This document shows, one piece after another, positions 5,042 through 62,512 of a DNA stretch of 64,000 bases. The notes below the pieces were generated by a model. That model searched no databases. It was given only the letters and a program-made list of their open reading frames with translations, and was not told the origin of the DNA. The position numbers and the translations under genes were made by a program. Each line of letters starts with the position of its first letter. The stretch's first letter is position 1. Source of the DNA: Candidatus Bathyarchaeota archaeon (GTDB taxonomy: Archaea > Thermoproteota > Bathyarchaeia > 40CM-2-53-6); the NCBI GenBank assembly GCA_963733055.1, contig CAVTBR010000001.1:768001-832000 (forward strand), written 5' to 3'.

Positions 5042-7236
5042 GGCTCCAAGATCTCCTGCAGAGAATTTGAGTACCTAGTTTTCAGCGCATCAACCTGAAA
5101 TTCTAGATTAGTCGACTTGAGATTGATTCTCAGCGAACCGCCTTCCACTGTCCCCACCGCCGCGGCCGGAACTTTCTTGCTTGAAAGCGACTCCAAGACT
5201 TGCTCAGAATTGTTTGAAGTCAGGATGAACCTTGAATTGGATTCGGAGAATAGCAACCCCTCATCACTTAGGCCAAAAACTGCAGGCGCGTTCCCTAGAT
5301 CTAGGGACACGCCCTTGGCACTTTGAATTGCCATTTCTGCTATGCCAATCCCCAATCCTCCCTTCGAGCAGTCATGGCAAGCTGAAACGAGACCTTGTCT
5401 TATACATTCCAAAACCGCTTTCTGCGTCCTGCCTTCAAGTTGAAAATCGAGTGCAGGTGGCACATTTCCCTTGAGCCCACGTGAGTTGTAGTATTCTGAG
5501 CCGCCCAGCTCTTGTTTCGTCTCTCCAATCACGATTATCGTTTCGTGATTGTTCTTGAATCCGGTTCTTGTGACATGTTCAATCCTATCGACCAATCCGA
5601 GCGCTGTTATGACTGGTGAGGAGTTGATTGCCCTCCGGGTTTCTTCGTCCTGGTTGTAGAAACTGACTTTGCCCCCAACGCAAGGTAGGGCTAGAGATCG
5701 GGCAAGGTAGGCTATGCCCTTAACGGCCATCGAAAATGCCCAGAAGATTTCCTCATCGTTCGGATCACCAAACTGGCAATGGTCTAGGAAAGCTATTGGT
5801 TCAGCACCAACAGCAACGATGTTGCGGCAACATTCCGCGAGAACGCTAGCAGCCCCAACGTAGGGGTCTAAGTCGCAGAACCGTGAATTTCCATCCACTT
5901 TGATGGCGGCTAGTTTTCCGTTGGGCAGCTTCAAGACGGCAGCGTCTGCCGTTCCCGGTTTGGCTACGGTTCTGATTCCAACTTCGTGATCGTACTGCTG
6001 GAAAACCCATTCCTTGCTCGCAATGGCTGGAAAAGCTAAGAGATCCCAGAACGCTCTCTCAAGATCCTTAGAGCCTTGAGGTTCTCGTTCCAGCTTTCGC
6101 ACTTGGGGCATTCTGGCCTTTCTGTTAATTGTGGGCGCGTTTGCGAGAAACTTCGTTGGAAGGTTCGCGATCAGTTCTCCGGAGCGGACGATGGCTATGT
6201 TGCCGCCGGTTGTGACTTCGGCAATGCAGGCGCAGGGTACTCCATACTTGCCCATGACTTCGCTAAGGGCTCCCTCCGATCCTTGTTTGGTTACGAGGAG
6301 CATTCGCTCTTGCGATTCTGAGATCATTACCTCCATAGGATCCATATCCAATTCTCTGACGAGTATCTTCTCTAAGTGGACCTCCAACCCCGTCCCACCT
6401 TTGTCGGCTATCTCAGCGAGTCCTGTAGCTAGGCCCCCGCCTCCCAGATCTTTGCACCCTCTGAGAAGTCCCCTACGACTCGCCTCGAGCGTTGCTTCGA
6501 TGATCAGTTTCTTGGTAAATGGGTCCGGGATTTGAACGGCAGACCTTTCCTTTTCCGAATTGATTCCGAGGGTTCTTGACGCAAACGTGGACCCATGGAT
6601 TCCGTCTCGCCCCGTTGAACCACCAACGAGATAGACGCTGTCTCCGGGACGGTTTGCTTTGGCTAGTAGTAGCTCCTCTTTCTTGCCTACGCCGAGACAG
6701 GCAACATCAACGAGGCAGTTACGTTCGAAGCATTCATCGAATTCGAGCTCCCCCGCTACAGTTGGGATGCCTACGCAGTTACCGTAGTCTGCGATACCTC
6801 GAACTACGTTTTTCATAATCCATTTCGAATGTTCACTTCGGATTATGTCACCGAACTTCAAGGCATCAAGGAGAGCAATTGGTGTTGTCCCCATGCAGAG
6901 TATGTCGCGAATGACTCCGCCTATGCCTGTGGCAGCGCCCCCATACGGGTCAACAGCGCTGGGGTGATTGTGACTTTCAATATGCATTGAGAGAACATAG
7001 CCATCCCCAATGTCCACGACGCCTGAGTCGTATCCTGGACCTAACACTACGCGTTGCCCGCTCGTTGGGAGCTGCGAGAGCAGTGGTTTGGATGATTTGT
7101 AGCTGCAGTGCTCACTCCACTCAGCATCAATCATCGCCCACTCAAGCGCATTCGGTTCCCTACCGAGCGTTCTACGCGCGCACACAACCTCATCAGGTGT
7201 GAGTGTATTTTCAACTTCGACTAACACTTGCTCCAC
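5029..7236 (-). CDS. purL: FGAM synthase subunit PurL
   Basis: WSEHCSYKSS, ESHNHPS, GAATGIGG, SESQERM, QQYDHEVG. Confidence 0.97.
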   Translation of the reverse strand: MEQVLVEVENTLTPDEVVCARRTLGREPNALEWAMIDAEWSEHCSYKSSKPLLSQLPTSGQRVVLGPGYDSGVVDIGDGYVLSMHIESHNHPSAVDPYGGAATGIGGVIRDILCMGTTPIALLDALKFGDIIRSEHSKWIMKNVVRGIADYGNCVGIPTVAGELEFDECFERNCLVDVACLGVGKKEELLLAKANRPGDSVYLVGGSTGRDGIHGSTFASRTLGINSEKERSAVQIPDPFTKKLIIEATLEASRRGLLRGCKDLGGGGLATGLAEIADKGGTGLEVHLEKILVRELDMDPMEVMISESQERMLLVTKQGSEGALSEVMGKYGVPCACIAEVTTGGNIAIVRSGELIANLPTKFLANAPTINRKARMPQVRKLEREPQGSKDLERAFWDLLAFPAIASKEWVFQQYDHEVGIRTVAKPGTADAAVLKLPNGKLAAIKVDGNSRFCDLDPYVGAASVLAECCRNIVAVGAEPIAFLDHCQFGDPNDEEIFWAFSMAVKGIAYLARSLALPCVGGKVSFYNQDEETRRAINSSPVITALGLVDRIEHVTRTGFKNNHETIIVIGETKQELGGSEYYNSRGLKGNVPPALDFQLEGRTQKAVLECIRQGLVSACHDCSKGGLGIGIAEMAIQSAKGVSLDLGNAPAVFGLSDEGLLFSESNSRFILTSNNSEQVLESLSSKKVPAAAVGTVEGGSLRINLKSTNLEFQVDALKTRYSNSLQEILEPWQK

Positions 7237-7889
7237 TCCACCATCGATTCGAACACCTTCAACCCATCTGTCCCACCCAACGCTGAGTCACTCGCCCTCT
7301 CGGGGTGGGGCATCATGCCGACAACGTTTCCAACCTCGTTAGAGATGGCAACTATTCCTCGCGCGGTTCCAGTGGGGTTTTCCTCAGCGTAGCTCATTAC
7401 GACCCTACCATCCGCCGTCAAGGTGTCTAGAACTGTATCATCAGCATAGAAGCGCCCTTCATTGTGTGCTATGGGCATGCTGATTCTGGACTCACTTTCG
7501 AACGCGCAACTGAAAGCCGATCGAATGTTCCTCAGTTGTAAGTTCGTCCATTTGCAAACGAATTTCAGTGAAGAATTGCGAAGAAGCACACCTGGAAGGA
7601 GTCCGGCCTCGACAAGAATTTGGAAACCATTACAAATTCCCAGAACAGGTCTCTCATCATGAGCGATCTTTCGTATACCCTCCAGGGCTGAAGAATGCGC
7701 GGCGATCACACCCGCGCGCAGATGATCACCGAAACTAAAGCCGCCAGGGAGAATAACCGCATCATATGACCGACCGTCAAAGTAGTTATGCCAGACAAGC
7801 TCGGTATCAATCCTAAGAGTATCGTTGAGGACGTGGACGGTATCGCGATCACAGTTGCTTCCTGGAAACTGGATGACCGCTACGTGCAA
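7221..7889 (-). CDS. purQ: FGAM synthase glutaminase subunit
   Basis: FPGSNCD, PGGFSFGD, GICNGFQIL, GMMPHPER. Confidence 0.97.
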   Translation of the reverse strand: MHVAVIQFPGSNCDRDTVHVLNDTLRIDTELVWHNYFDGRSYDAVILPGGFSFGDHLRAGVIAAHSSALEGIRKIAHDERPVLGICNGFQILVEAGLLPGVLLRNSSLKFVCKWTNLQLRNIRSAFSCAFESESRISMPIAHNEGRFYADDTVLDTLTADGRVVMSYAEENPTGTARGIVAISNEVGNVVGMMPHPERASDSALGGTDGLKVFESMVEWSKC

Positions 7890-7891
7890 GT

Positions 7892-8152
7892 CTACGCACT
7901 AGACCTGACGGTTATTGAGTGTGCGGCGGGATTGTAAAGCCTGAGATCATTGCACATGCGGAGAGCTTCGTCTCTCGCTTCGGCTTCGCTTGATGCTTCG
8001 ATTCTTACGGTCAACAGTTTTCCGGTTCGGACTTCCTTCACGCGTCGGAGACCCTTCTTGTAAATCAGATCCCTGGTTATGGTTTCTCCCTCTGGATCTC
8101 GGGCCTGCGGCTTGTTCGAGATGATTATTTCAACTGAGAAAGTTGGATCCAC
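7892..8152 (-). CDS. purS: FGAM synthase subunit PurS
   Basis: DPEG, EVRTGK, LYNP motifs; 86 aa; between purC and purQ. Confidence 0.92.
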   Translation of the reverse strand: MDPTFSVEIIISNKPQARDPEGETITRDLIYKKGLRRVKEVRTGKLLTVRIEASSEAEARDEALRMCNDLRLYNPAAHSITVRSSA

Positions 8153-8858
8153 TACAAACCCTCCTTAGCGGCTCGGCATAACCGAGTTCGAAAACTTGGG
8201 AGAGGCCCTTTCGAAACCTGTCTTTATCTAGGATTTCCTTTGTTTCCTTGTCCCAGAGCCTCCAAGAGTCTGGGCTTAGTTCATCACCGATCAACAGATT
8301 TCCGTGAGCGTCGCGGCCGAACTCAAGTTTGAAGTCTACAAGAATCGCATTGCGATCGTCGAAGAACTTCTCCAATAAGGCGGCGGCCTTTACCGCGGTC
8401 TGTTTCATTTGTTCTATCTCTTCGTCGTTGGCGAGCTGTAGAAGCATTAGGTGTTGATCAGTGAGCATTGGGTCGTGCAATGAGTCATCTTTCAAGTAGA
8501 ATTCAACGATAGGAAACGGCAGCTTGTCCCCGTTCTTGAAATGCTTCCCTATCCCAATGAAGTGACCCGCGGCACGGATTCTACAGACAACTTCCACAGG
8601 AATCATTTGTAGCTCCGTGACGAGAAGTCTGTTAGAGTCAACCTGTTTGATGAGGTGGTTTGGAATTTCATGCTTGGTGAAAATTTCGTACAGCTTCGCG
8701 GTGATTGCCGCGTTCACTTTGCCTTTGCCTTGCAGAATGTCGTGCTTTTTTCCGTCGCCTGCGGTGATATCGTCCCTGAAGGTGAGAATAACCTGACCCA
8801 GTTCGCCCGATGCGCTAACGGTCTTTGTCTTGCCCGCGGCAAGCTCCATTATTGCCAT
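8130..8858 (-). CDS. purC: SAICAR synthetase
   Basis: GKTK, DDITAGDG, IPVEVVCR, LVDFKLEFG, DELSPDSWRLWD, DKDRFR. Confidence 0.96.
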   Translation of the reverse strand: MAIMELAAGKTKTVSASGELGQVILTFRDDITAGDGKKHDILQGKGKVNAAITAKLYEIFTKHEIPNHLIKQVDSNRLLVTELQMIPVEVVCRIRAAGHFIGIGKHFKNGDKLPFPIVEFYLKDDSLHDPMLTDQHLMLLQLANDEEIEQMKQTAVKAAALLEKFFDDRNAILVDFKLEFGRDAHGNLLIGDELSPDSWRLWDKETKEILDKDRFRKGLSQVFELGYAEPLRRVCSGSNFLS

Positions 8859-8994
8859 GTTTCGTTAATTAAACGGCATCAGTAAAAATGATTCTTGACT
8901 CATTCGTATCAAGGACGACCCGTCTGTTCCGTTAGAACCTTCCAGATGGCCTTCTTGTTGATAGGCTCCTGTCAATAGTCACTTCCGCTCGGAG

Positions 8995-10590
8995 CTAATG
9001 CGTGAAATGCCTGATCCCGGTGAATTGCATAGCCATCTGGAACTCGTTCGCAGCCTCCACAACCTCTTTGTCGCGGATGGAGCCGCCGGGTTGAATGACC
9101 GCGGTAACTCCAACCTTTGCCATCAAATCAATTGAGTCTCTGAAGGGAAGGAATGCGTCCGAGGCCATGACCGTACCTTTAACATTCAATCCCGCCTCTT
9201 CCGCCTTCATTATCGCGAGTTTACACGAGTCAACCCTGCTCATCTGGCCAGCCCCAACCCCGACAAGCTGCTCAACGGACGCTAGCACAATCGCATTAGA
9301 CTTGACGTACCTGACGAGTTTCCACGCAAAACGAAGCGCTTGACTCTCTTCGCTTGTTGGTTCACGACTGGTCACGGTCTTGAGATTGTGTTCTTCGATC
9401 AAGAGCTCGTCACGATCCTGGTACAAGATGCCTCCATGGATTTTCCTCAACGTTTTTTCCGCTCGCGTACGCGCCTTGTCTAGAGCCTGGATATTCGCAA
9501 TGTCTAGGAGACGGCGATTTTTCTTCGCGGAGAGAACTCTCAAGGCTTCAGGATCGAAACCCGGCGCAAGAACCAATTCGACGAACTTATCGCTGAGTAG
9601 AGTCGCGGTTTGAATGTCCACTGGTCGAGTAAATCCGTATACTCCACCAAACGCCGCGACAGGGTCCGTCTCCAGAGCCCGACGACATGACTCAACGAGT
9701 GTTCCTGCTTTTGCGACGCCGCAAGGGTTTGTGTGTTTGATGATTATCGTTGAGACCGAATCATCCAACGCCCCAATCAGGGCGTAGGCGGCGTCGGCGT
9801 CCAGTATGTTCGTGTAACTCAATTCCTTATCGCCTGTCACCATCCTAGCCGCAGCGATGCAATTCAGAGCTTGTGCGTCTCGATAGACTGCGGCCCTTTG
9901 GTGAGGGTTCTCTCCATATCGCAGGTCTTGGATCTTCTCGAAGCCCATCAGCAACTTGGCAGGTCCAGGCCATTCCGGCCGAATACCCTCCTCGGACGCG
10001 ACCCTCTGAAAGAAGGATGAAATGACCATGTCGTAGGCCGACGTGAGTTCGAATGCTTTCAGCATCAGTCCCAGACGTGTTGCTTCGGAGAGAGACCCCT
10101 CATTATCTTGAAGTTCGGAGAGAATCTTCGCGTAGTCCGTTGGATCGGTAACAACGGCCACGCTGTGGTAATTCTTGGCAGCTGCTCGAATCATCGTCGG
10201 CCCGCCTATGTCGAGATTCTCTAAGGCATGGGGAATGTTCGTCGGTTCTGAGGCCGTTGCTTTTTCAAACGGGTACAGGTTGACCACAACCAGGTCTATA
10301 GGCCGGACACCCAATTTCCGGACGGTTTCCCTGTCCTCTTCAATTCCTCTCCTGTAAAGGAGACCTGCATAGATTTTCGGATGGAGACTCTTAACGCGAC
10401 CATCCAGGATTTCCGGGAACCCAGTATATTCAGCCATCTCCTGAACCGAGATTCCATTTTCGGTGAGTAATTTTGCCGTTCCTCCGGTTGATATCAGTTC
10501 AAAGTCCAAGGCTCGAAGTCCTTTCGCGAATTCCAGAATGTTTGTTTTATCGTAGACACTTAGTACGGCGGTCCTAACTTTCGCGGCCAT
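8995..10590 (-). CDS. purH: Bifunctional AICAR transformylase/IMP cyclohydrolase (bacterial type)
   Basis: LSVYDKT, STGGTA, GRVKSLHP, LRYGENPHQ, KHTNPCG, ASDAFLPF, IQPGGS, RHFTH; start set at ATG of MAAKV. Confidence 0.96.
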   Translation of the reverse strand: MAAKVRTAVLSVYDKTNILEFAKGLRALDFELISTGGTAKLLTENGISVQEMAEYTGFPEILDGRVKSLHPKIYAGLLYRRGIEEDRETVRKLGVRPIDLVVVNLYPFEKATASEPTNIPHALENLDIGGPTMIRAAAKNYHSVAVVTDPTDYAKILSELQDNEGSLSEATRLGLMLKAFELTSAYDMVISSFFQRVASEEGIRPEWPGPAKLLMGFEKIQDLRYGENPHQRAAVYRDAQALNCIAAARMVTGDKELSYTNILDADAAYALIGALDDSVSTIIIKHTNPCGVAKAGTLVESCRRALETDPVAAFGGVYGFTRPVDIQTATLLSDKFVELVLAPGFDPEALRVLSAKKNRRLLDIANIQALDKARTRAEKTLRKIHGGILYQDRDELLIEEHNLKTVTSREPTSEESQALRFAWKLVRYVKSNAIVLASVEQLVGVGAGQMSRVDSCKLAIMKAEEAGLNVKGTVMASDAFLPFRDSIDLMAKVGVTAVIQPGGSIRDKEVVEAANEFQMAMQFTGIRHFTH

Positions 10591-10678
10591 TTCCAATCTC
10601 GACGATGAATTGATTCCTGCGGAACTTAGGTTTTCTTGACGCACCAAATCTGGCTTTAAGATCGCGGATGCTCAGACG

Positions 10679-15472: not shown

Positions 15473-15542
15473 ACCGAACGGGTACTAGCGTCTCCTAGTC
15501 TTAATGAAGAGGAAGGCCAGTCTGTAGTTTAGGCCTGTACCT

Positions 15543-18500
15543 TTGGACGCAACAGCTCTAAGTCGTCACGACCTATATTTTCAAGGTCTGAAGAATCAGG
15601 TCGACCAGATCTATGATCTGGCTAGACAGGCAAGGGCGAAGGGATTGGATCCATCACGGGATCCAGAGTCTGTGGTCACCCAGGATGTTGCGGAACGAGT
15701 CGAGAAGGCTGTAGGTCCCCCTAATGTAGCTTCAAGAATCCGCGAACTTTCGCTTCTGATGCAACGCGAACTTGTAGCGCTCAAGATAGCAGAAGAGATC
15801 TCGCTTTCAAAGTATGGAGTGGATGGCGAGCGCGCAGCAGAACAGGCGGTTCGAACTGCATCGGCCATTCTAGACGAAGGCGTTACTGCAGCGCCGATTG
15901 AGGGGATCTCAAGCGTCAGGATAAGAACAAATCAGGATGGATCCAAGTATCTGGCTGTTTACTTTGCAGGTCCCATTCGGTCGGCTGGGGGCACCGATAT
16001 GGCATTGATCCTTGTCATAGCTGATTATGTGAGACACCAGCTGGGGTTGGGCCGATACAAAGCTACGGAACTTGAGGCGAAAAGGTTCGTAGAAGAACTG
16101 CGTTTGTATGAGAGAGAGGTGGCCCGATTTCAGTTTAAGGTTTCAGATGAAGAGCTGTTCAACGCGGTCATGCGACTGCCAGTCGAAGTCAACGGGGTTG
16201 AAACGGATCCCGTCGAGGTTTCAGCGTACAGAAACGTTCCACGGGTGGACACGAACCGGGTGAGAGGCGGGGCACTGAGGGTTGTTCACGATGGGCTGAT
16301 TGGTAGAAGCCACAAGGTCCTGAAGATAATCGACAGCTTAGGTATAGAGGGATGGAGTTGGCTGAAGGAAATTAAGCCTCCCGTGGCTGAGGCGGAAGAG
16401 GCGCGTGAGTTCATGTTCATGGAGGATGTTCTGGCGGGACGGCCAATCTTCTCCTTTCCACAGTTCACGGGAGGCTTTAGGCTGAGATATGGAAGAGCGA
16501 GAAATACCGGCTTGGCCGCAATTGGCCTTCATCCGTCTACAATGATTGTTCTAGGCAAGTTCATCGCCGTTGGAACACAGCTCAGGTTAGAGAAGCCTGG
16601 CAAGGCAGGCATCGCGGCGACCGTTGATTCAATCGAACCCCCCATAGTTCGATTGAAGGATGGTTCCGTTGTGAGGCTATCAGACGCAAAGCGAACGGAA
16701 GAGCTCCTCGATTCGGTGGACGAGATTCTGTTCTTAGGGGACATACTGATAGGGTTCGGAGAATTTCTCGAGAACAATCGCCCCCTCCTCCCGTCAGGTT
16801 TTGTTGAGGAGTGGTGGAGTCAGCTAATGGAACTTGAAGCTACGAAGCACTCTGGTATACGCGGGTTCGCGGATCACATAAGTGTTGATGAATCTAGAAT
16901 TCTCGCCTATCTGAATGACTCAAGTGGAGAATATCCTACCGCTGAGGAAGCGATTCGCATCGCAAAACGATCAAACGTCCCTCTACATCCCAAATACACA
17001 TGTTTCTGGGAGAACATCGCCCCACAAGACTTTGACTACTTACGCTCAAAACTAATCGATCGCAACCAAACAACCCTATCCCCTAATCGAATATCGACTA
17101 AGAATGACACAATGACCAAGGCTATACTAGAGAACCTCTGCGTCCCCCACAGGGTTGAGCAAGATCTGCTAATAGTGGAAGAGGATGCGACGGTCTTGCA
17201 CGAATGCCTTGGGTTGGCTTCTCAGGGGGGGGCAGTGGAGGGGAAGGATGTGTTTGAGAAACTCTTTCACGCTTCGGGGATGCGAGTGATGAGAAAGGCG
17301 CCAGTCTATGTTGGCGCGCGAATGGGTCGGCCGGAAAAGGCGGCGAGGCGCGAAATGCGGCCTATGGTTCATTGTTTGTTTCCAATTGGGCTAGCCGGCG
17401 GATCTAGGAGGAATATTGTTGAGACTGTGGCAGAACACACCATAATCTCAGTTGATTTGGCGTACCGAAAATGCCAGAATTGCGGTAACGTCACTCACTT
17501 TGGCAAATGCGAGAAATGTGGCACTGATACAGTTGGCGCGTTTGCCTGCCAAAGGTGCGGTATCGACACCCCCGATAAAGTCTGCCCCTCATGCAAAGGC
17601 AAGGCCGAGGCGTTTACCCGAAGGAATGTACCCATACGTGACTTATTCAATGCGGCGCAAAGAAGACTCTCTCTCACCGTCACCCCCGAGAGCGTAAAAG
17701 GCGTGCGCGGGCTGACCAATCAGACGAAGACGCCGGAGCCTCTTGAGAAAGGACTTCTGAGAGCGAAGTATGACGTGTCCGTCTTCAAAGATGGAACCGT
17801 GCGATTCGATGCGACGAATGCACCGCTTACACACTTCAAACCTGTTGAGATCGGCGTTGGAGTCGACAAACTAATCGGGTTGGGGTACGAAGTCGACGTA
17901 GCGGGCAATCCACTTACATCGAATCAGTGTTGCAGCCTCAGAGTACACGACATCATCGTGCCGGAAACATGTGGAGACTACTTCGTCAGAGTCGCAAAAT
18001 TCATCGATGACCTCCTCCAACGCCTGTACGGCTTGCCACCATTCTACAATGCGAAGAACAAAGAGGACTTAGTTGGTCAATTGGTTATCGGCCTCTCTCC
18101 ACACACCTCAGTGGGTGTCATTGGACGTATTATCGGCTTTACAAAAGCCAGCGTCACCCTAGCACACCCATTCTGGCACGCCGCTAAGCGTAGGGATTGC
18201 GATGGTGACGAGGACTCCGTCAGCCTTGCTTTAGACATCCTTCTGAATTTCTCGAAACTGTTTCTTCCCTCAAGAATTGGGGGAATAATGGATGCCCCAA
18301 TTCTGTTAACGATCGGAATCAAACCACGGGAGGTTGCCCGCCAGGCTTTCAACATCGAATCGGTTAACCGTCTACCCTTACAGTTCTTCGATGCAACGCA
18401 AAAACGCTCTGACCCCAAATCCCAAGCCGCCATCATTGAAACAGTCCAAAACCGGCTTGGTTCGCAGGCAGTGTTGGAGTCCCTAGGTTTCACTCAAAGT

Positions 18501-18956
18501 ACTGATGATGTAGACGCGGGAAACTTGGAGAGCGTTTACAAGAAACTGGGGTCGATGATTGAAAAGGTGGGCCTGCAACTGAAATTGGCCGAGTCGATCA
18601 AAGCAGTGGAAGCAGGAGAGGTCGCGAAGAGAGTGTTATCGACTCATTTCATGCGAGACCTTACTGGAAACCTGAAGGCCTTCGCCGGCCAAAGGTTCCG
18701 GTGCACGAAATGCAATTCGAAATTCCGGCGTCTACCATTGAAAGGAGCTTGTCCAAGATGCGGGGGCAAGCTCTCACTAACCGTTTACAAGGGAGGTGTA
18801 GAAAAATACTTGACCGTAGCCCAGGATTTGGTCAAGCGATACGATTTGGGTCAATACCACGAACAGCGATTGTTACTTCTCCGTGAAGAGATCAACTCCC
18901 TGTTTAACGAACATGAGGAGAAAAAGAAACAGCCTACACTAGCGCAATTCGTTTGA
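15543..18956 (+). CDS. polC: DNA polymerase D large subunit DP2, no intein
   Basis: EGVTAAPIEG, YFAGPIRSAGGT, FRLRYGRARNTG, HAAKRRDCDGDED, C-terminal CTKC...CPRC. Confidence 0.97.
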   Translation: MDATALSRHDLYFQGLKNQVDQIYDLARQARAKGLDPSRDPESVVTQDVAERVEKAVGPPNVASRIRELSLLMQRELVALKIAEEISLSKYGVDGERAAEQAVRTASAILDEGVTAAPIEGISSVRIRTNQDGSKYLAVYFAGPIRSAGGTDMALILVIADYVRHQLGLGRYKATELEAKRFVEELRLYEREVARFQFKVSDEELFNAVMRLPVEVNGVETDPVEVSAYRNVPRVDTNRVRGGALRVVHDGLIGRSHKVLKIIDSLGIEGWSWLKEIKPPVAEAEEAREFMFMEDVLAGRPIFSFPQFTGGFRLRYGRARNTGLAAIGLHPSTMIVLGKFIAVGTQLRLEKPGKAGIAATVDSIEPPIVRLKDGSVVRLSDAKRTEELLDSVDEILFLGDILIGFGEFLENNRPLLPSGFVEEWWSQLMELEATKHSGIRGFADHISVDESRILAYLNDSSGEYPTAEEAIRIAKRSNVPLHPKYTCFWENIAPQDFDYLRSKLIDRNQTTLSPNRISTKNDTMTKAILENLCVPHRVEQDLLIVEEDATVLHECLGLASQGGAVEGKDVFEKLFHASGMRVMRKAPVYVGARMGRPEKAARREMRPMVHCLFPIGLAGGSRRNIVETVAEHTIISVDLAYRKCQNCGNVTHFGKCEKCGTDTVGAFACQRCGIDTPDKVCPSCKGKAEAFTRRNVPIRDLFNAAQRRLSLTVTPESVKGVRGLTNQTKTPEPLEKGLLRAKYDVSVFKDGTVRFDATNAPLTHFKPVEIGVGVDKLIGLGYEVDVAGNPLTSNQCCSLRVHDIIVPETCGDYFVRVAKFIDDLLQRLYGLPPFYNAKNKEDLVGQLVIGLSPHTSVGVIGRIIGFTKASVTLAHPFWHAAKRRDCDGDEDSVSLALDILLNFSKLFLPSRIGGIMDAPILLTIGIKPREVARQAFNIESVNRLPLQFFDATQKRSDPKSQAAIIETVQNRLGSQAVLESLGFTQSTDDVDAGNLESVYKKLGSMIEKVGLQLKLAESIKAVEAGEVAKRVLSTHFMRDLTGNLKAFAGQRFRCTKCNSKFRRLPLKGACPRCGGKLSLTVYKGGVEKYLTVAQDLVKRYDLGQYHEQRLLLLREEINSLFNEHEEKKKQPTLAQFV

Positions 18957-23995: not shown

Positions 23996-24358
23996 GTGGC
24001 GGATTTGAATAAGGCAATGTATACTGTCCTTGTTGTAGGAATGATTTCAAGTACAGCAATTTACATACTCGGGTTAATCCTGTTCATCTTACAGAACCCT
24101 AACCCGATGCAGGCGACGTTGGTAACATACGGTAGCGTGAACGATTTTCTTCAGCAAATAATCGCCTTGCGTGCTTCAGCAATTCTAATGGTTGGGACAA
24201 TCGTGTTGATCGCGACTCCCATTACGCGAGTTTTCCTGTCGGTCCTGGTCTTCGCCGCGAATCGTGATCGGAAGTTCGTTCTCGTTACGGGTTCCGTGAT
24301 GCTGATTATGATTGTCAGCCTCATTTTGGGTTACTTCTGGCACCTAAGTATAGGTTAA
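23996..24358 (+). CDS. DUF1634-like membrane protein
   Basis: LIATPITRV motif; follows the TauE gene. Confidence 0.75.
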   Translation: MADLNKAMYTVLVVGMISSTAIYILGLILFILQNPNPMQATLVTYGSVNDFLQQIIALRASAILMVGTIVLIATPITRVFLSVLVFAANRDRKFVLVTGSVMLIMIVSLILGYFWHLSIG

Positions 24359-24446
24359 TGAAATCAAGAAACCAGAGAGACTTCGGCGTAACAGTGAGGT
24401 ATTCAGGGCAAAGGAATTTAGAGGTCTATGGGTCCCGTTGAATGGG

Positions 24447-25805
24447 GTGTTTGATTTACAGAAACCAAAGGAGTCCCACGACAAGGTGCTGGAACTGCTA
24501 GAGCAGCACCATAAGTGGTTCTCCGAGTCGATACCATTGATCGCATCTGAGAACGTTCCCAGCCCGGCGGTGCGCGAAGCAATCGTTTCAGACTTCGCTA
24601 ATCGTTACGCGGAATAGACCTGGACATCTGTCAGATCTACGCAGGGATGGGTCGGGGAACGAGTATACGCCGGATGCGTATACATAGATCAAGTTGAACG
24701 AATCTGCATTGACCTAGCCAAAGATTTGTTCAAAGCGGAATTCGTCGATGTGAGGCCTGTCTCCGGAGTTTGTGCAAACCTAGTCGTGTACACTACTTTC
24801 ACGAATCCAGGTGATCGCATGTTGGCGATGGCCATACCCAACGGCGGACACATTTCCACTGGGAGAAAGGAGTTTAACGGAACCGCGGGCTCCGTTCATG
24901 GCCTTGACGTGGAGTATTTCGCGTTCGACAAGGAGGAGATGAATATTGACATTGACAAGACGAAGGAGAAGATACGGAAAATGGCTGAGGAGGAGCATAA
25001 GCCCCCGAAACTTGCGATGTTTGGTTGCAGCCTCTTCCTTTTCCCGCAACCCATTCGCGAACTCGCTGATACGTTGCATTCGGTTGGGGCAAAAATAGCG
25101 TACGATGCTGCACACGTTGCAGGCCTCATTGCGGGAGGACGTTTTCAGGATCCGCTGAGGGAAGGAGTCGACGCCGTATGCTTGAGTACCCACAAAACCC
25201 TCTTCGGACCTCAAGGTGGCGCCGTACTGTCGTTCGACAAATACGGAGATCAGATAAAGAAAGCGACATTTCCATCGAACACGAGTAACCACCACCTCCA
25301 TAATTTGGCCGGCAAGGCTGTCGCTTTTGCGGAGATGCTGGAATTCGGGAAGCAATACGTTGGACAGGTTATCGACAACGCGAAAGCTCTAGGCCAGGCA
25401 TTACATGAGGCGGGGTTCACTCTGCTGGGGGAGAGTAAGGGATTCACGGAATCGCACCAAATCGCAGTTGATGTAACGAAATTTACACTCGGAGGCGACG
25501 CCGAGAGGGCACTCGAAGCTGCTAACATCATCGTGAACCGTCAGCTACTCCCCGGCGACATCAAGGCCGGAAGGCACTATCAGAATCCGGGCGGCATACG
25601 CATCGGAACCTCGGAAATAACTCGGACAGGGATGGGGAAGAACGACATGAGTGAGGTCGCAAGCCTCATCAAAAGGGTAGTAATCAACAAGGAAGACCCA
25701 AAGAAGGTCAAACAGGACGTTGCTGAATTGCGTAAGAACTTCCAGGACGTCCACTACTGCTTCGAAAGCGCGAAGAATGCATACGAATACATCAAAATCC
25801 GATAA
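24447..25805 (+). CDS. glyA: Serine hydroxymethyltransferase, interrupted by a 30-nt insert at 24615-24644
   Basis: Part 1 IPLIASEN...SDFANRYAE; part 2 GWVGERVYAGC...YDAAHVAGLIAG...STHKTLFGPQG...GIRIGT; same frame; 442 aa once the insert is removed. Confidence 0.95.
24615..24644 (+). other. Candidate bulge-helix-bulge intron in glyA
   Basis: TAGACCTGGACATCTGTCAGATCTACGCAG; starts with an in-frame TAG; internal hairpin; junctions fall at BHB cut positions. Confidence 0.75.
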
Positions 25806-25884: not shown

Positions 25885-26064
25885 ATGTCAACCGCACGAG
25901 AGAAAAGGCGCAAACGAGAATCGCCAATGCCCGCCGCCAGCGCAGGCTTACTTCGGTTCTTCGAAGAGGAAACCCCGGGAGTAAAGGTAAGGCCCGAGGT
26001 CGTAGTCATGGGGTCAATCGGCCTTGTCGCCGTGAGCCTCTTCATGTATCTGACTTTCAAGTAG
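25885..26064 (+). CDS. secG: Preprotein translocase subunit Sec61-beta (59 aa)
   Basis: Manual translation ...MPAASAGLLRFFEEETPGVKVRPEVVV plus C-terminal TM. Confidence 0.9.
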   Translation: MSTAREKRRKRESPMPAASAGLLRFFEEETPGVKVRPEVVVMGSIGLVAVSLFMYLTFK

Positions 26065-27082
26065 CCCTTCGCGCGAAGTCGGCTAACTTCGTCTGCGCGA
26101 GTACAGGTAGCGGCCCAGCCTTAATGCCTAGCTTCCTTTCTATCTGGGCTGACAGCAGATCTATGTATCCTGTGAAGATGAACACTGCTTTCGGGTTGAC
26201 GGCCGCGATAAATTGCATGAGCTGATTATAGTCCGCGTGACTACTCAGAGGGAATGCAGTGAAACTGCGAAAAGCTTCGCGTAGGGCCCAACCGGTCGCA
26301 ACTGCTCTTGAGGCATTGTGCGGCACTTGGTTTCGTCGAGTGGTCGTGACGTAGACACATCCTCTCGATTTCAACGCGTGCTTTCCCTCATCGGTCGAAG
26401 AATCTAGATAGTCAAGTTGAACGCCGTTTTCATTGTGAACAAGGTTTGCTGCCGCTATCCCAGGCGCGCATACGACTGGGATTTTGGTGTAGATGTTGAA
26501 GAGGCGGACGATGTCTTGTGGTTTGCCGGATGAGTAGACTTGGAAAGTCGGTAACTTGCCGTCATTAATCTCCGTCATCGTCCATCGTATGATGTCCGCG
26601 TATATGGTGTCTCTTTTGGGGAAGACGTATGACGGATGCCCATAGGTCGCTTCTATAATCAGAAAATCGCAACGTTCAGCTTTGGCTGCTTTGGTAGTCA
26701 GTGTATCCACACAATTGATGTCGCCCGTATAGAGTGCTGTAAATTCGGGGGTGATCAATTGGAACTGACATGAACCAAGCATGTGACCGGCATCGAGGAC
26801 CCTGATTTCGGTGTCATCAAATTGCATTTTCTCACCGATCCGTATGGTCTGATCATTCTTGACCGTGCGTTTTGAAAGTGATTCGTAGATACGAAGGGTC
26901 TCGGGTGTGGAGTGTTTTTTCGCGGAAGTTCCAAAGCCATAGGTATGGTCTGAATGAGCGTGAGTGATGAAGACGTTCCAATCCTCGCCCAACCGCCTGC
27001 CTAGAGTCGGATCGAAAAGGAGGCGGGACGAGCCCGTAGTCATTATTATCCCATTGCTCCACCCGATCGGCTGTTCCTGCAA
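26057..27082 (-). CDS. Metallo-beta-lactamase/beta-CASP nuclease
   Basis: THAHSDH, AGHMLGS, YTGD, EATYG, LSSHAD. Confidence 0.88.
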   Translation of the reverse strand: MQEQPIGWSNGIIMTTGSSRLLFDPTLGRRLGEDWNVFITHAHSDHTYGFGTSAKKHSTPETLRIYESLSKRTVKNDQTIRIGEKMQFDDTEIRVLDAGHMLGSCQFQLITPEFTALYTGDINCVDTLTTKAAKAERCDFLIIEATYGHPSYVFPKRDTIYADIIRWTMTEINDGKLPTFQVYSSGKPQDIVRLFNIYTKIPVVCAPGIAAANLVHNENGVQLDYLDSSTDEGKHALKSRGCVYVTTTRRNQVPHNASRAVATGWALREAFRSFTAFPLSSHADYNQLMQFIAAVNPKAVFIFTGYIDLLSAQIERKLGIKAGPLPVLAQTKLADFARRAT

Positions 27083-27114
27083 GTTGATTGCCCCTCAGTT
27101 TTGTATCCAAGTTC

Positions 27115-39995: not shown

Positions 39996-40089
39996 CAACG
40001 GCTGAAAGCAAACCGTGGTACTCAGAGTTACCTAAGCAAAAGGTACAATTCGGAGCACTGACGATTTGAGCTGGTCAGGTCCAGCGCGC

Positions 40090-41022
40090 ATGCCTAGATA
40101 CTCGCACGTTATCCAAATTCAAGAGGCTGAGCCAAAAGGGAAACCGGATTGGCTGCGTGTGAGGGCTCCGTCGGGCGACAATTACGCGAAAATCAAAGAC
40201 CTCCTACGAAATCATAACCTCCACACCGTCTGTGAGGAAGCTCACTGCCCGAACGTGGCTGAATGTTGGGGCGGAGGAACGGCCACATTCATGCTCATGG
40301 GCGACACATGTACCCGCGGCTGCCGGTTCTGCATGGTCAAGACAGGAAACCCTCATGGTACCCTGGATGCCCTTGAACCTGTGAAGGTTGCGGAAGCGAT
40401 AGCGGACTTGGGCTTAAGGTATGTCGTGATAACTTCGGTTGATAGAGATGACATTCCAGACGGCGGGGCCGACCACTTCGCATCTACCATCAAAGCCATC
40501 AAACAGAGAGACCCCGAGGTAATCACCGAGGTCCTCATTCCTGATTTCCAAGGCGACTTCGCAAGCGTGGACAAGGTGATCGAGGCGGGACCCGAAGTCA
40601 TTGCGCATAACATCGAAACCACCGAACCATTAACGCCAAAAGTGCGAGACCCAAGGGCAACCTACGAACAGTCGCTTCGAGTTCTCAAGCACATCAAGGA
40701 GGTAGGCTCGTCAGTGTACTCGAAATCATCCATTATGCTCGGCTTGGGCGAGATCGAGAGCGATGTCGTCAAGACGATGGAGGACTTGCGGCGAGTAGAT
40801 GTCGACATCCTAACCCTCGGACAGTACCTTCGACCATCGAAGGGCCACATTCCAGTAAGCGAATACGTCAGCCCAGAGAGGTTCGAACACTACAAACATC
40901 TCGCCGACGACCTAGGATTCTTGTACGTCGCCTCCGGCCCGTTCGTCAGGAGCTCATACAGAGCCGGGGAGTTCTTCGTCGAGGCGCTAATTCGTAAGAA
41001 GAAAATGGAAGTTGTCAGCTGA
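40090..41022 (+). CDS. lipA: Lipoyl synthase
   Basis: KPDWLR, CEEAHCPNVAEC, CTRGCRFC, VRSSY. Confidence 0.97.
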   Translation: MPRYSHVIQIQEAEPKGKPDWLRVRAPSGDNYAKIKDLLRNHNLHTVCEEAHCPNVAECWGGGTATFMLMGDTCTRGCRFCMVKTGNPHGTLDALEPVKVAEAIADLGLRYVVITSVDRDDIPDGGADHFASTIKAIKQRDPEVITEVLIPDFQGDFASVDKVIEAGPEVIAHNIETTEPLTPKVRDPRATYEQSLRVLKHIKEVGSSVYSKSSIMLGLGEIESDVVKTMEDLRRVDVDILTLGQYLRPSKGHIPVSEYVSPERFEHYKHLADDLGFLYVASGPFVRSSYRAGEFFVEALIRKKKMEVVS

Positions 41023-41137
41023 GCTTTAACAAGCTTGACGCAAGCATCGTGTGAAACAGTCTAGTGTAAGAGCAAGCTTTACAAGCCCTAGTTCGGCTCT
41101 GCCTTCCGTTTCACGCAGCCTCAATAGGGGTTAAGGT

Positions 41138-42226
41138 TTGACTCTCGAGTTACTGCAGGTTATCAAGCCTAGCGGTGAGCCAATCGCGAATATGGAGCCA
41201 GACATCTCCAAAGACGAGTTGAGGCGGCTCTACCGTGTAATGGTTCTGACGAGAAACCTGGATACTCGCGGATTACAATTACAACGACAGGGGCGTATAG
41301 GGTTCTACATCGGGTGTTTAGGGCAGGAAGCAGCGCACATTGGAAGCGCCTATGCTTTGAAACCGGAGGACTGGGTTTTCCCCGCATACAGAGAAATAGG
41401 TTCAATGCTCCTGCGTGGCATTACACTCAATCAACTTCTCGACCAATACTTTGCGAACGCGGAAGATGTTCAGAAAGGTCGGCAGTTAACCAATCTCTTA
41501 GGCGTCAAGACCCTAAACTACGTTACAGGATCGGCACCTATAGCCACACAAATTCCACACGCCGTTGGCGCCGCCCTCGCAGCTAAGCTGAGAGGAGATC
41601 CGATCGTGACGCTAACCTATTTTGGAGATGGGGGGACATCTGAAAATGATTTCCACGCAGGAATGAATTTCGCCGGTGTATACAAGACCCCAACCGTATT
41701 CTTCTGCCTAAACAATCATTGGGCAATTTCCCTTCCGGTTGAGCGACAAACCGCCTCTGAAACTATAGCAATCAAGGCCCAGGCTTACGGTTTCGAAGGT
41801 GTTCGCGTCGACGGAAATGATATTCTCGCTGTCTATCGCACCACGAAAGAAGCGGTTGAAAAAGCCCGGAAGGGAGAAGGCCCAACTCTCATTGAAGCCG
41901 TCACCTACCGCATGGGCGCACACTCATCTTCGGATGATCCAAAACGCTACAGATCAGAACAAGAGCTCGAGGAATGGCAGAAACGGGATCCGCTTGTGCG
42001 ATTCCGAAAGTATCTGGAGAGGAAGGGAATTTGGAGCGAGGCAGACGAAAAGAAGACACAGGATGAGGCAAATCGCGAGATAGATCAAGCGGTTCAGCAC
42101 GCTGAGAAATTACCGAAACCCGCCCTCGAAACTCTATTCACCGACGTGTACGCCGAAATGCCGTGGCATCTCGAAGAACAATTGAAAGGGCTGCGGGAAG
42201 AGAAGCAGCAGAGGGACAATAGTTGA
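41138..42226 (+). CDS. pdhA: 2-oxoacid dehydrogenase E1 alpha (pyruvate or branched-chain)
   Basis: RQGRIGFY, GDGGTSE...NN TPP motif, HSSSDDP. Confidence 0.9.
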   Translation: MTLELLQVIKPSGEPIANMEPDISKDELRRLYRVMVLTRNLDTRGLQLQRQGRIGFYIGCLGQEAAHIGSAYALKPEDWVFPAYREIGSMLLRGITLNQLLDQYFANAEDVQKGRQLTNLLGVKTLNYVTGSAPIATQIPHAVGAALAAKLRGDPIVTLTYFGDGGTSENDFHAGMNFAGVYKTPTVFFCLNNHWAISLPVERQTASETIAIKAQAYGFEGVRVDGNDILAVYRTTKEAVEKARKGEGPTLIEAVTYRMGAHSSSDDPKRYRSEQELEEWQKRDPLVRFRKYLERKGIWSEADEKKTQDEANREIDQAVQHAEKLPKPALETLFTDVYAEMPWHLEEQLKGLREEKQQRDNS

Positions 42227-43197
42227 CTGTTCTGAACGTGGTTCAAGCCGTCAACCACGCGTTACGGGAAGAGATGGCGCGAAATGACAAGGTCATAGTT
42301 CTCGGGGAAGACGTTGGCATCGACGGCGGTGTCTTTCGAGCAACTGAAGGATTAATCAAAGAATTTGGCCCAAACCGAGTCATCGACACCCCCCTCTCCG
42401 AGTCAGGAATCATAGGAGTCTCCATCGGGATGGCTCTCTTTGGATTGAGACCTGTATCAGAGATTCAGTTCATGGACTTCATTTATCCAGGGTTCGACCA
42501 AATCCAAAGCGAACTTTCAAAGTTCAGATACAGATCCGGAGGCCAATTCACAACCCCCGTCGTGATCAGAACTCCCTACGGGGGAGGTATCAGAGGCAGC
42601 CACTACCACTCTCAAAGCACTGAAGCATTCTTCGCCCACACGCCCGGGCTTAAAGTTGTGATTCCGGCAACACCCTACGACGCAAAAGGCCTCCTTACAT
42701 CCGCCATGCGCGATCCGGATCCTGTCATATTCCTTGAACCCAAGAAAATCTATCGGACAGTCCGCGGAGAGGTTCCCGATGAGGAATATACGGTCCCAAT
42801 AGGTAAGGCCAACATCGCCCGCGAGGGTAATGATGTAGTCGTGTTCGCGTATGGTGCTATGCTTCACGTGGCTATGGAAGCCGCGGAACTTGCGGCAGCA
42901 AAAGGCGTCAATGTAGAAGTGGTTGACATTAGAACCATCGCACCCTTCGACATTGAAACAATCATCAATTCGGCTAAGAAAACGGGAAGGGTAGTGATTC
43001 TGCACGAGGCATGCAAGACCGGCGGGTTCGGCGCTGAGATAGCGGCGCAGATTGCGGAACGTTGCATTCTAAGTTTGAAGGCGCCTATCCTACGGGTAGC
43101 AGGCTTCGACGTCCCATTCCCATACGTTCTCGAAGACGAATACATGCCCAACGCCAACCGCGTCCTAACAGCAATCGAAAAAGTCCACAACTTCTAA
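42223..43197 (+). CDS. pdhB: 2-oxoacid dehydrogenase E1 beta
   Basis: GEDVG...GGVFRAT, DTPLSE, EIQF, HSQS. Confidence 0.9.
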   Translation: MTVLNVVQAVNHALREEMARNDKVIVLGEDVGIDGGVFRATEGLIKEFGPNRVIDTPLSESGIIGVSIGMALFGLRPVSEIQFMDFIYPGFDQIQSELSKFRYRSGGQFTTPVVIRTPYGGGIRGSHYHSQSTEAFFAHTPGLKVVIPATPYDAKGLLTSAMRDPDPVIFLEPKKIYRTVRGEVPDEEYTVPIGKANIAREGNDVVVFAYGAMLHVAMEAAELAAAKGVNVEVVDIRTIAPFDIETIINSAKKTGRVVILHEACKTGGFGAEIAAQIAERCILSLKAPILRVAGFDVPFPYVLEDEYMPNANRVLTAIEKVHNF

Positions 43198-43217
43198 CCA
43201 GGAAATAGTGATACTGA

Positions 43218-44474
43218 TTGGTCTACGAGTTCCGCCTTCCAGACATAGGTGAAGGCGTAGCTGAAGGCGAAGTTGTAAAATGGCTGGTAAAGGAAGGAGA
43301 CTCGGTAAAGGAGAACCAGCCCCTCGTCGAAATCATGACCGATAAGGTCAACGTAGAAATCCCCTCCCCCAAGCAAGGAATAATCCAGAAACTCATGGCC
43401 AAAGAGGGCGAAGTCGTCAAGGTAGGACAAGCTCTCCTCGCAATAGAAGAAAAAGGTGGACAACCAAGCGCTCCGGGATCAGAAAAAGCACCCGCTCCCA
43501 CGAAAGCAGCTCCCACTATATCTGCGAAAACACCCACGGTTTCTAGGCCACAAGAAATCCAAACAACAACTCCCCCTCAAGTTTCACGAAAACCCTCAGA
43601 AGTCTTGGCGACGCCTGCGACTCGAAAGCTTGCGAGAGATCTTGGTGTAGACCTATCTGTTGTTCAGGGAAGTGGCCGCGGCGGCCGAATTACAGACGAA
43701 GATGTGCAACGCTTCAAACAGCTAGGGGGAGCGGTCGCCGCTATAGCTGTGACCACTTCTGGGCCGCGCGGCGTTGAGGAGCGAGTTCCGTTACGAGGAA
43801 TTCGACGAAAAGTTGCGGAACACATGCTCAAATCCAAGAATGCGGCGGCACAAGTAACCCATGTGGACGAAGTTGACATGACCGAAGTCGTCCATCTGAG
43901 AGAGAGGGCGAAAGCTTCAGCTGAGAAGCGTGGAGTAAAGTTGACTTACCTGCCTTTCGTCATGAAGGCCCTAATTCCGGCACTGAAGCAGTACCCGTAC
44001 CTTAACTCCAGCTTGGATGACGAGAAACAGGAGATAGTGCTCAAGAAATACTACAACATCGGTATAGCGACCGACACTGAGCAGGGGTTAATGGTTCCTG
44101 TGGTCAAGGACGCCGACCACAGATCGATAACGCAACTCGCCACAGAAATCGCGACCCTTAGCGAGAAAGCCCACACAGGACAGCTGGCTTTAAATGAAGT
44201 TCAGGGAAGCACCTTTACAATAACCAACGTAGGCGGAATCGGCGGAGTGTTCGCTACTCCAATAATCAATTACCCAGAAGTCGCCATACTCGGACTCCAT
44301 AAAATCACCAAACGCCCTATCGTCAAGGACAACCAAATCACAATCCGTGAGATGACCTACCTCTCCCTATCCTTCGACCATAGAGTACTAGACGGCGCAA
44401 TGGCAGCCCGGTTCGTAAACGCAATCAAACAATACCTAGAGGATCCGAAACTCCTTCTGCTCGAAACCGACTAA
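43218..44474 (+). CDS. pdhC: Dihydrolipoamide acyltransferase E2
   Basis: Lipoyl domain MTDKV, E3-binding ATPATRKLA...GRGGRI, SFDHRVLDG. Confidence 0.92.
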   Translation: MVYEFRLPDIGEGVAEGEVVKWLVKEGDSVKENQPLVEIMTDKVNVEIPSPKQGIIQKLMAKEGEVVKVGQALLAIEEKGGQPSAPGSEKAPAPTKAAPTISAKTPTVSRPQEIQTTTPPQVSRKPSEVLATPATRKLARDLGVDLSVVQGSGRGGRITDEDVQRFKQLGGAVAAIAVTTSGPRGVEERVPLRGIRRKVAEHMLKSKNAAAQVTHVDEVDMTEVVHLRERAKASAEKRGVKLTYLPFVMKALIPALKQYPYLNSSLDDEKQEIVLKKYYNIGIATDTEQGLMVPVVKDADHRSITQLATEIATLSEKAHTGQLALNEVQGSTFTITNVGGIGGVFATPIINYPEVAILGLHKITKRPIVKDNQITIREMTYLSLSFDHRVLDGAMAARFVNAIKQYLEDPKLLLLETD

Positions 44475-44537
44475 ACGACAGTTGTACGTGCGAGTTTCGT
44501 CTTCTCATCACGATTATATAGTGCTCATCTCGGAGCG

Positions 44538-44798
44538 GTGGACAGCGAAGTGAGCGTCTTGTCAAGGAGACCTGAGGGGATGGGTTGGAGAGTGGCAGTG
44601 TCTATCGTCGCCTTCTTCGGCTCAATAATAGCTGTTATACTGTGGCTATTCTTCTACGCAGGGAGCTTCAACGTGTATCAGAACCTCGCTGTCGTTGTTG
44701 TGATCTTCCTAGCCTTCATCGCAGTGATGGGCGCAACATGGGCCCCCTGGGGCATGAAGCAAGCAGCCTGGTGGACCGACAGAACCAACACTCCGTAA
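44538..44798 (+). CDS. Small 2-TM membrane protein
   Basis: 86 aa with two hydrophobic helices. Confidence 0.65.
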   Translation: MDSEVSVLSRRPEGMGWRVAVSIVAFFGSIIAVILWLFFYAGSFNVYQNLAVVVVIFLAFIAVMGATWAPWGMKQAAWWTDRTNTP

Positions 44799-45017
44799 AG
44801 ACAGAAACGACTGTCCAACCCAGATAACCACTAGCTCGTTCCAGCGAAGGCAGTAGCATACTTGTTGCTTGCAATGGTTGCTTAATCGAGAACACGATGA
44901 GGAACGAACGCCTCGCGTGTGGGGGTCTAGTGGTGCGCACACACACAAAACTCCACCTACAATTACCGTGGCCCAACAGGCCAATAGATTTGTTAGTCGC
45001 ATAGATTCGACGAAAAC

Positions 45018-45443: not shown

Positions 45444-45686
45444 TCTGCTTTTTCGATTTTGATACGACTGCTTGCCTAACTCCTTCTAGAGGAGACGAGA
45501 GAAGATCTCGATGAACGAAACCGTGGAATTACCAGCAATACAGCGTCAATGAAATTCAAGAGCAAACTAAGCAATGAAATCTTATCATTCACGTATCGCG
45601 TCACACAGTCGTGTATCGTTCTGCTAGGTATATTTGCGGGTGGGTAATACGCAGAATCTGTTTTCTGGGGGGGGGGGTGGTATTAG

Positions 45687-45711
45687 TGGTGCGAGCACCG
45701 CAATTTGAACC
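45687..45711 (-). repeat. Degenerate tRNA 3'-end fragment (Gly-like) with CCA
   Basis: Minus strand GGTTCAAATTGCGGTGCTCGCACCA. Confidence 0.55.
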
Positions 45712-45751
45712 ATCGTTTTTCACGCATAAAGGTCAAATCGAAAGCCTTAGG

Positions 45752-62511: not shown

Positions 62512-62512
62512 T

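Follow-up and report, generated by a model that had tools for sequence, protein, structure and literature searches.

The window analysed in this study is a 64,000-nucleotide (nt) stretch of contig CAVTBR010000001.1 (positions 768,001 to 832,000) from a soil-type Bathyarchaeia archaeon, whose 2.88-Mb assembly in 3 contigs is 96% complete and is called G000 below. On its forward strand, window positions 24438–25805 hold glyA, the gene for serine hydroxymethyltransferase (SHMT), and the frame of this gene is interrupted by a 30-nt insert that we examine here as a candidate bulge-helix-bulge (BHB) intron. The frame reads ...SDFANRYAE, runs into an in-frame TAG at 24615–24617, and is taken up again as GWVGERVYAGC once 30 nt have passed (24615–24644, TAGACC...ACGCAG), from where it stays open to the stop at 25803–25805. 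The parts of the gene are as follows.

24438..24614, + strand: glyA exon 1, starting at TTG 24438 or GTG 24447 and ending ...NRYAE; Pfam SHMT positions 4–50
24615..24644, + strand: putative BHB intron of 30 nt, opening with an in-frame TAG; homologous inserts in 19 other genomes
24645..25805, + strand: glyA exon 2, 386 codons and the stop, beginning GWVGERVY and containing STHKT; Pfam SHMT positions 51–399

The split glyA gene and the motif at its junctions

Against the Pfam SHMT profile (PF00464), the upstream piece takes up profile positions 4–50 and the downstream piece takes up 51–399, so the junction is seamless and removal of 24615–24644 leaves nothing missing and nothing extra. Exon 1 alone scores 24.4 bits, below the 27-bit cut-off, exon 2 scores 207 bits (E 4.6e-61), and a full-length match to the family is obtained once the insert is taken out. 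The STHKT in exon 2 is what we take to be the lysine motif that binds pyridoxal phosphate (PLP). An initial annotation of this stretch had placed a 30-nt insert with an in-frame TAG between YAE and GW, and both the frame reading and the Pfam match confirm it. Its product lengths of 442 amino acids (aa) with the insert removed and a 56-aa stub with the insert in place belong to the GTG start at 24447, while the TTG start at 24438 would give 445 aa and 59 aa, respectively; with either start, removal restores a full SHMT.

The sequence around both ends of the insert can be drawn as a BHB motif, the elements of which are given here from 5′ to 3′ (counts refer to the alignment of 19 introns described in the next section).

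24608, + strand: exonic C closing the motif (helix h, a single pair), pairing with G24646; C-G in 19/19
24609..24612, + strand: 5′ strand of helix H, GCGG, exonic (Ala codon and first base of the Glu codon), pairing with 24639–24642
24613..24615, + strand: 5′ bulge AA|U, 3 nt, predicted cut after 24614
24616..24638, + strand: intron hairpin, helix h′; covariation in 10/10 modelled pairs
24639..24642, + strand: 3′ strand of helix H, ACGC, intronic; A24639 stands opposite G24612 as a G·A mismatch
24643..24645, + strand: 3′ bulge AG|G, 3 nt, predicted cut after 24644

Three of the four central pairs form in G000 (G24609–C24642, C24610–G24641 and G24611–C24640) and the fourth position is the mismatch G24612·A24639. 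With this mismatch and a helix h of one pair, the motif is a relaxed (HBh′-like) form rather than the canonical hBHBh′. All of the pairs listed in the initial annotation are present in the sequence, as are its G·A mismatch, its 3-nt bulges and its closing pair C24608–G24646. Its reading that the cleavage rule of the archaeal splicing endonuclease EndA would excise exactly 30 nt also stands, with the predicted cuts after 24614 and 24644 falling on the glyA boundaries that homology defines.

The insert in other Bathyarchaeia

Exon 2 was searched against 41 genomes of the same order and 29 orthologous loci were read. In 16 of these loci the insert immediately follows the Glu codon of YAE and immediately precedes the Gly codon of GW, and the other 13 are without it. 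A class-wide sample of 301 genomes, 129 of them with an orthologue, gave 4 further interrupted genes that were fetched and confirmed, and the insert-bearing glyA genes amount to 20 genomes of one Bathyarchaeia order (G000 and 19 others). Among 65 same-class orthologues outside the order, judged by the open frame of the match as a proxy only, there was no shortened open frame except in matches at contig ends. Of 80 loci scanned separately on one-genome-per-species contigs, 10 have the insert, all from close Bathyarchaeia-type relatives (one under a bacterial label), while those of the 80 that are labelled Nitrososphaeria, Asgard or otherwise are all without it.

The 20 inserts are 25 (three genomes), 30 (four), 31 (two), 32 (six), 33 (two) and 34 nt (three) long, and the length is not a multiple of three, and thus shifts the frame, in 14 of them. 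Despite these frame-shifting lengths, protein identity of the exons is 63–90% on both sides of the insert, and every one of the 20 has an in-frame stop inside its first five codons. Recurrence, frame-shifting lengths and kept exons together rule out read-through, an error of assembly and a peptide insertion that the protein tolerates. Indel-type frameshifts in other genes of G000 would fit an artefact of long-read sequencing and assembly, but the insert is present in 20 assemblies, which come from several different projects where titles are known, and a structured insert of 25–34 nt is not a homopolymer slip. We put the chance of such an artefact at practically nil, in line with the initial annotation, which had held that the insert is not an error of the homopolymer type.

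Most genomes of the window's genus carry the intron, G016 and G019 being without it. It is also found in two other families, in each of which the 3 members sampled all have it, and in one of the 6 genomes of a sister genus. A quick maximum-likelihood (ML) tree was built from the exon-2 proteins of 24 orthologues with 3 outgroups, leaving out the partial or frameshifted loci L018, L025, L027, L028 and L029, and the intron label has to change at least three times on it. It is possible that the intron was gained once and lost several times, or that it was gained repeatedly at one site. Many of the relatives (G005, G020, G011, G037, G018, G021, G015, G014 and G006) also have a second SHMT-like gene, about 44% identical, which G000 does not have. 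A flag of one TAA or TAG inside this paralogue was discarded as a sign of further interrupted genes, being the paralogue's own stop (a shorter C-terminus) in L030 and assumed to be the same in the others.

For covariation, 19 distinct intron sequences were aligned together with 7 exon bases upstream and 2 downstream. They share one architecture, which runs from a C (helix h) through 4 nt of helix H and a bulge of AA plus one base into the hairpin, and from there through 4 nt of helix H and a bulge of two bases plus G to a closing G (helix h). Standard pairs are found in 89.9% of 277 cells versus 31–47% when the 3′ partners are slid by 1–3 columns, and an earlier count on 15 sequences gave the same picture. 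Changes on both sides are seen in 11 of 15 pairs and the covariation score was reached by none of 500 shuffles, though the sequences are kin and the shuffle statistics overstate their independence. Helix H (columns 2–5/36–39) pairs in 97.4% of cells, the bulges are 3 nt long in all 19 sequences, and the AA of the 5′ bulge and the single C-G pair of helix h are invariant. The four pairs of helix H are, in order, GU 13/GC 6, CG 19, GC 15/CG 3/AU 1 and GC 17/mismatch 2, the last being the G·A mismatch shared by G000 and its nearest relative, G013. Other natural forms of the helix include GCCG/CGGU and GCAG/CUGC. The third of them is a covariation between exon and intron, in which the wobble base of the Ala codon changes together with its intron partner (G-C 15, C-G 3, A-U 1). 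In helix h′, all 10 modelled pairs have changed on both sides and 85.7% of cells pair. In every aligned sequence, cutting each bulge behind its second base reproduces the homology-based junction. The initial annotation had pointed to glyA of relatives as the place where presence or absence of the intron and compensatory changes would show, and both are found there. Codon choice in the exonic part of the motif differs between the two sets of genes.

Tyr codon: intron-bearing (20), TAC 20; intron-less (13), TAC 5, TAT 8
Glu codon: intron-bearing (20), GAA 20; intron-less (13), GAA 7, GAG 6
Ala codon: intron-bearing (20), GCG 16, GCC 3, GCA 1; intron-less (13), GCT 8, GCG 2, GCA 2, GCC 1

Each Ala wobble base in the intron-bearing genes pairs with its intron partner, and constraint on the synonymous sites of the motif is confined to genes that carry the intron.

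These comparisons also bear on translational recoding, in which the ribosome would read through or hop over the insert, as in the bypass of T4 gene 60, and no splicing would take place. The stop stands directly after the last codon of exon 1 and is followed by a hairpin, an arrangement that resembles the gene 60 take-off site. However, read-through cannot work for the 14 of 20 inserts that shift the frame, no codon matching the take-off GAA is present at the 3′ ends of the inserts (CCGTAG, CCGCAC, CGGTTG etc., before GGA or GGT), and a bypass does not predict a conserved 4-bp helix with two 3-nt bulges whose cuts give the junction. We regard recoding as extremely improbable.

Selection was measured on both exons as the proportions of nonsynonymous (pN) and synonymous (pS) differences. 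For exon 1 against 7 orthologues, pN is 0.07–0.11 and pS 0.28–0.65, and for exon 2 against 5 of those orthologues, pN is 0.10–0.11 and pS 0.78–0.83 (saturated), giving a pN/pS of about 0.1–0.2 in both. The piece before the stop is as constrained as the piece after it, unlike in a pseudogene. Between G000 and G013, pN is 0.023 and pS 0.556 over 253 codons, and this low pN relative to pS indicates that the G·A variant of helix H is compatible with function. A reader of the G000 sequence could nonetheless suspect that insert and stop inactivated glyA, in this genome or in the whole clade, given that the insert opens with an in-frame TAG, that there are other broken genes in the assembly, and that the glyA of G013 has an additional 1-nt indel. 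Strong purifying selection acts on both exons across the insert-bearing species, the precise structure and its compensatory changes extend over 19 sequences, and 445 codons are open on both sides of the insert in 20 genomes, which is not expected of a dead gene. The initial annotation had named relaxed selection and an intact copy of glyA elsewhere as points that would weigh against an intron, and neither was found; glyA is single-copy in G000 (1 match). The chance that glyA is a pseudogene appears minute. The G013 gene (L025) has the same ACGC intron variant, and its indel is one additional C around codon 250 of exon 2; this frameshift could be an assembly error or a real lesion.

Splicing enzymes, the cbf5 intron and further candidates

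Two PF01974 (EndA) genes are present in G000. One, on the minus strand at C3:228596–229153, encodes a candidate alpha subunit of 185 aa, whose matches to catalytic subunits of the enzymes from A. pernix, S. tokodaii and P. aerophilum have E values from 1e-28 to 1e-39. Its match to chain B of the A. pernix structure 3P1Z (E 3.6e-39) aligns Y123, H131, K162, R155, W182 and a loop with K39/K41. Hirata et al. (2011, PMC3241643) name Y125/H133/K164, R157, W183 and the loop residues K44/R46 in the A. pernix enzyme. From this alignment, the alpha subunit is predicted to be of the crenarchaeal type, catalytic and equipped with a broad-specificity loop. The second EndA paralogue, 188 aa long and encoded on the minus strand at C1:1338729–1339295, has a divergent EndA fold and, by eye, is without the catalytic His; it would be a structural beta subunit, and the two would presumably assemble into a heterotetramer. 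The ligase RtcB gives one uninterrupted PF01139 match of 576.8 bits over positions 1–426. Of the 33 tRNA genes that ARAGORN called in the whole of G000, 29 were predicted to contain introns. Some of these introns would be thousands of bases long, which is implausible, and the tRNA gene set is probably rich in introns and poorly captured by this program. The gene for the non-catalytic EndA paralogue lies head-to-head with mtnA (C1:1338729–1340462, L032:1474–3207), which by the look of its sequence belongs to the methylthioribose-1-phosphate isomerase family and has an uninterrupted frame of 349 codons in G000.

Outside the window, cbf5 of the same genome is also split, by a 19-nt insert on the minus strand of C2:202833–202851 (L140:2259–2277). 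Exon 1 of cbf5 ends ...GHGGTL plus a G and exon 2 starts AT CCA AAG (D-P-K), placing the insert within the codon for the catalytic Asp. In its structure, CCCU pairs with GGGG in a helix of 4 bp, the bulges are AG|A and CA|A, and the hairpin stem is 3 bp long. All 30 loci read from relatives across the order have an insert of 17–21 nt at this position, with compensatory helix changes by eye, and the position equals that of the published crenarchaeal cbf5 intron as given by Yokobori (2009, PMC2738675). The G000 cbf5 fits this known family, and the glyA intron, which appears to work like that of cbf5, sits in another gene and hence falls outside the cbf5 locus family.

With these enzymes and the cbf5 intron in view, we considered whether the insert might be taken out of the RNA by some other nuclease and ligase or by self-cleavage, with the likeness to a BHB motif being incidental. 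The motif is relaxed, with one h pair and one H mismatch in G000, and cleavage by EndA is only predicted, both of which leave room for this idea. On the other hand, the geometry fits the EndA rule base for base in 19/19 sequences, the host has a broad-specificity alpha subunit, an experimentally validated type of intron is present in cbf5 of the same genome, and Rfam finds no family at the insert (24300–24900, no match at E ≤ 1). To our knowledge, 25–34 nt is also too short for any known class of self-splicing intron. Removal by a route other than EndA seems very unlikely.

Four scans of G000 gave no convincing third mRNA intron. Scan (a) combined a BHB filter with fusion of open reading frames (ORFs) and a compact hairpin (L ≤ 70) and was set against eight decoy geometries; with a helix H of 4 bp it returned 26 candidates versus 13–16 in the decoys, and with 3 bp it returned 108 versus 119–130. 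Short-intron scan (b) (L 12–45) had 204 matches versus 160–196, and scan (c), which looked for seamlessness against paralogues, had 2 of 14 spanning matches versus 0–2 in the decoys. A covariance model of the glyA intron matches only the glyA intron in G000 (E 3.5e-7), and the intron is therefore not a repeated element. The outcome of no third case should be read with caution, because scan (a) would miss the real cbf5 intron, whose h′ is 3 bp. The initial annotation had suggested that mRNA micro-introns may be hidden as apparent pseudogenes in this lineage; the split cbf5 adds one instance to glyA, and the scans of G000 did not extend the list.

All 26 candidates with a 4-bp helix H were tested as half-proteins against Pfam, and 3 have a split domain. 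The POR_N match (1–52 and 63–229, C1:1549994–1550021, L127) was taken as a frameshift in which the skipped 28 nt read as the expected protein stretch in another frame. The N6_Mtase/HsdM match (2–68 and 84–311, C3:539188–539222, L139) and a zinc alcohol dehydrogenase (ADH_N and ADH_zinc_N, C1:1162575–1162639, L116) were taken as frameshifts as well, the profile gap in each of the three being about a third of the skipped length. All three splits look like 1-nt indels, either assembly errors or true frameshifts, and not introns. The most glyA-like match, at C2:353022–353053, is two genes overlapping in ATGA. In the Pfam annotation of the window's 57 ORFs, no other split gene was found.

Proposed splicing of glyA and its relation to known introns

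Taken together, we consider it very likely that 24615–24644 is a genuine archaeal BHB intron in the glyA coding sequence (CDS) that is cut by a heteromeric EndA and joined by RtcB. In the proposed mechanism, the exonic GCGG of the pre-mRNA would pair with bases at the intron's 3′ end into a 4-bp central helix, flanked by the bulges AA|U and AG|G, while the rest of the intron would form a hairpin and one C-G pair between the exons would close the motif. The heteromeric endonuclease, made of the catalytic alpha subunit and its non-catalytic paralogue, would cut after the second base of each bulge, and RtcB would join GAA to GGA, giving ...NRYAE|GWVGER... in a full-length SHMT. The spliced junction would then read ...TACGCGGAA|GGATGGGT..., and on unspliced mRNA translation would end at the TAG that opens the intron. 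The view of the initial annotation that this is a BHB intron draws support from the recurrence of the insert, its compensatory changes, selection on the exons and the set of predicted enzymes.

Several points weigh against this interpretation. Cleavage and ligation are things that we infer from comparison and not from RNA, and a look-up of public RNA runs matching 24300–25300 of the window listed none. The minimum free energy (MFE) fold of 24596–24660 is not the BHB and is no better than that of shuffled sequences (z +0.55; 138 of 200 fold as well), and the motif in G000 is relaxed rather than canonical, with a G·A mismatch in helix H and a helix h of one base pair. The structural filter that this site passes is a loose one, with 590,004 passes among some 5.5e8 (position, length) pairs genome-wide, or about 1 in 1000, and candidates that combine a BHB with an ORF fusion are not enriched over the decoy geometries across the genome. 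Since the filter is passed by chance and there is no such enrichment, structure alone proves nothing, and given the weak fold of the single sequence the weight of the evidence comes from the relatives, the kinship of which has been noted above.

Introns in crenarchaeal cbf5 pre-mRNA have reportedly been known since 2002, with the names Watanabe (2002) and Yoshinari (2006) attached to them. According to Yokobori (2009, PMC2738675), these introns are 16–44 bp long, lie in a very conserved peptide motif, and vary in presence among species and in internal sequence while keeping the motif, and a hetero-oligomeric endonuclease cuts them between bulge bases 2 and 3; introns in other archaeal protein genes are described there as predicted and unconfirmed. 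The glyA insert is alike in being a short BHB in a CDS, in sitting in a conserved peptide motif, in following the same cut rule, in differing in presence or absence among relatives, and in keeping its motif while its internal sequence varies. It differs in that glyA encodes a metabolic PLP enzyme of Bathyarchaeia and not an RNA-modifying enzyme, in that the glyA intron is in phase 0 (at a codon boundary) whereas that of cbf5 is inside a codon, in that the glyA intron opens with an in-frame stop or soon reaches one, and in that the glyA case is known from sequence alone.

Schwarz et al. (2020, PMC7714728) give cbf5 as the only CDS example besides one case in a 5′ untranslated region (UTR), and describe a BHB intron in the mRNA 5′ UTR of Haloferax volcanii HVO_1309. 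HVO_1309 is similar to glyA in that the substrate of the splicing endonuclease is an mRNA and not a tRNA or rRNA, and differs in that its intron is in the untranslated leader, where no frame is interrupted, and in that its enzyme is of the homodimeric euryarchaeal type. The non-canonical tRNA introns of Thermoproteota, processed by an (alpha-beta)2 EndA, also compare well: in Hirata et al. (2011, PMC3241643) the relaxed hBHBh′/HBh′ motif lies outside the setting of the anticodon loop, and the catalytic triad and loop lysine of the enzyme are features shared with G000; the glyA substrate differs in being an mRNA, which if left unspliced would yield a truncated 59-aa peptide. Full-text searches, with subscription-only papers outside their reach, found only cbf5 as a gene with a CDS-interrupting BHB intron, and a full-text search for SHMT, BHB, intron and archaea together found no paper. 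The glyA intron is a real, conserved and new case of a known but extremely rare kind, with its splicing predicted from genome comparison.

A core metabolic gene is thus split in the manner of cbf5, and conserved so in 20 genomes, which suggests that mRNA splicing by the tRNA machinery is not peculiar to one gene. In Bathyarchaeia, gene-calling programs and metabolic reconstructions will count glyA, and likewise cbf5, as a pseudogene or as missing. The covariation between exon and intron provides a natural substrate series for what the heteromeric endonuclease needs outside the tRNA body, and glyA is a tractable gene in which to follow how introns are gained and lost in the coding genes of prokaryotes. 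We also considered the speculative idea that the glyA intron belongs to a class of micro-introns that are site-specific in ultra-conserved motifs (YAE|G of SHMT, the catalytic Asp of Cbf5) and are kept as a gate on enzyme production. The intron occurs at the identical phosphodiester bond in at least 3 separate clades of the quick gene tree, and gating of SHMT is suggested because all 20 unspliced copies stop within five codons. If it were true, SHMT output and one-carbon flux would follow the splicing capacity of EndA and RtcB, but we think it unlikely.

Among the Pfam matches of the window's ORFs (E ≤ 1e-7) there is no homing endonuclease near glyA. Just downstream of glyA and of a small Sec61-beta-like ORF (25885–26064), the minus strand holds an ORF of 341 aa at 26060–27094 that has an HxHxDH-type metallo-beta-lactamase motif by eye and no Pfam match at E ≤ 1e-7. 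By Pfam, the rest of the window includes a purine-biosynthesis cluster (purM/E/N/D/F/L/Q/S/C/H-type domains) and DP2, the large subunit of PolD; a lipoyl synthase together with a lipoate ligase and the E1 alpha, E1 beta, E2 and E3 components of a 2-oxoacid dehydrogenase complex; and a cluster for branched-chain amino acids (ilvE-, leuCD-, ilvD-, leuA-, leuB-, ilvC- and ilvN/B-type domains). Together these clusters span window positions 1–10671, 15528–18953, 40036–48866 and 54156–63999.

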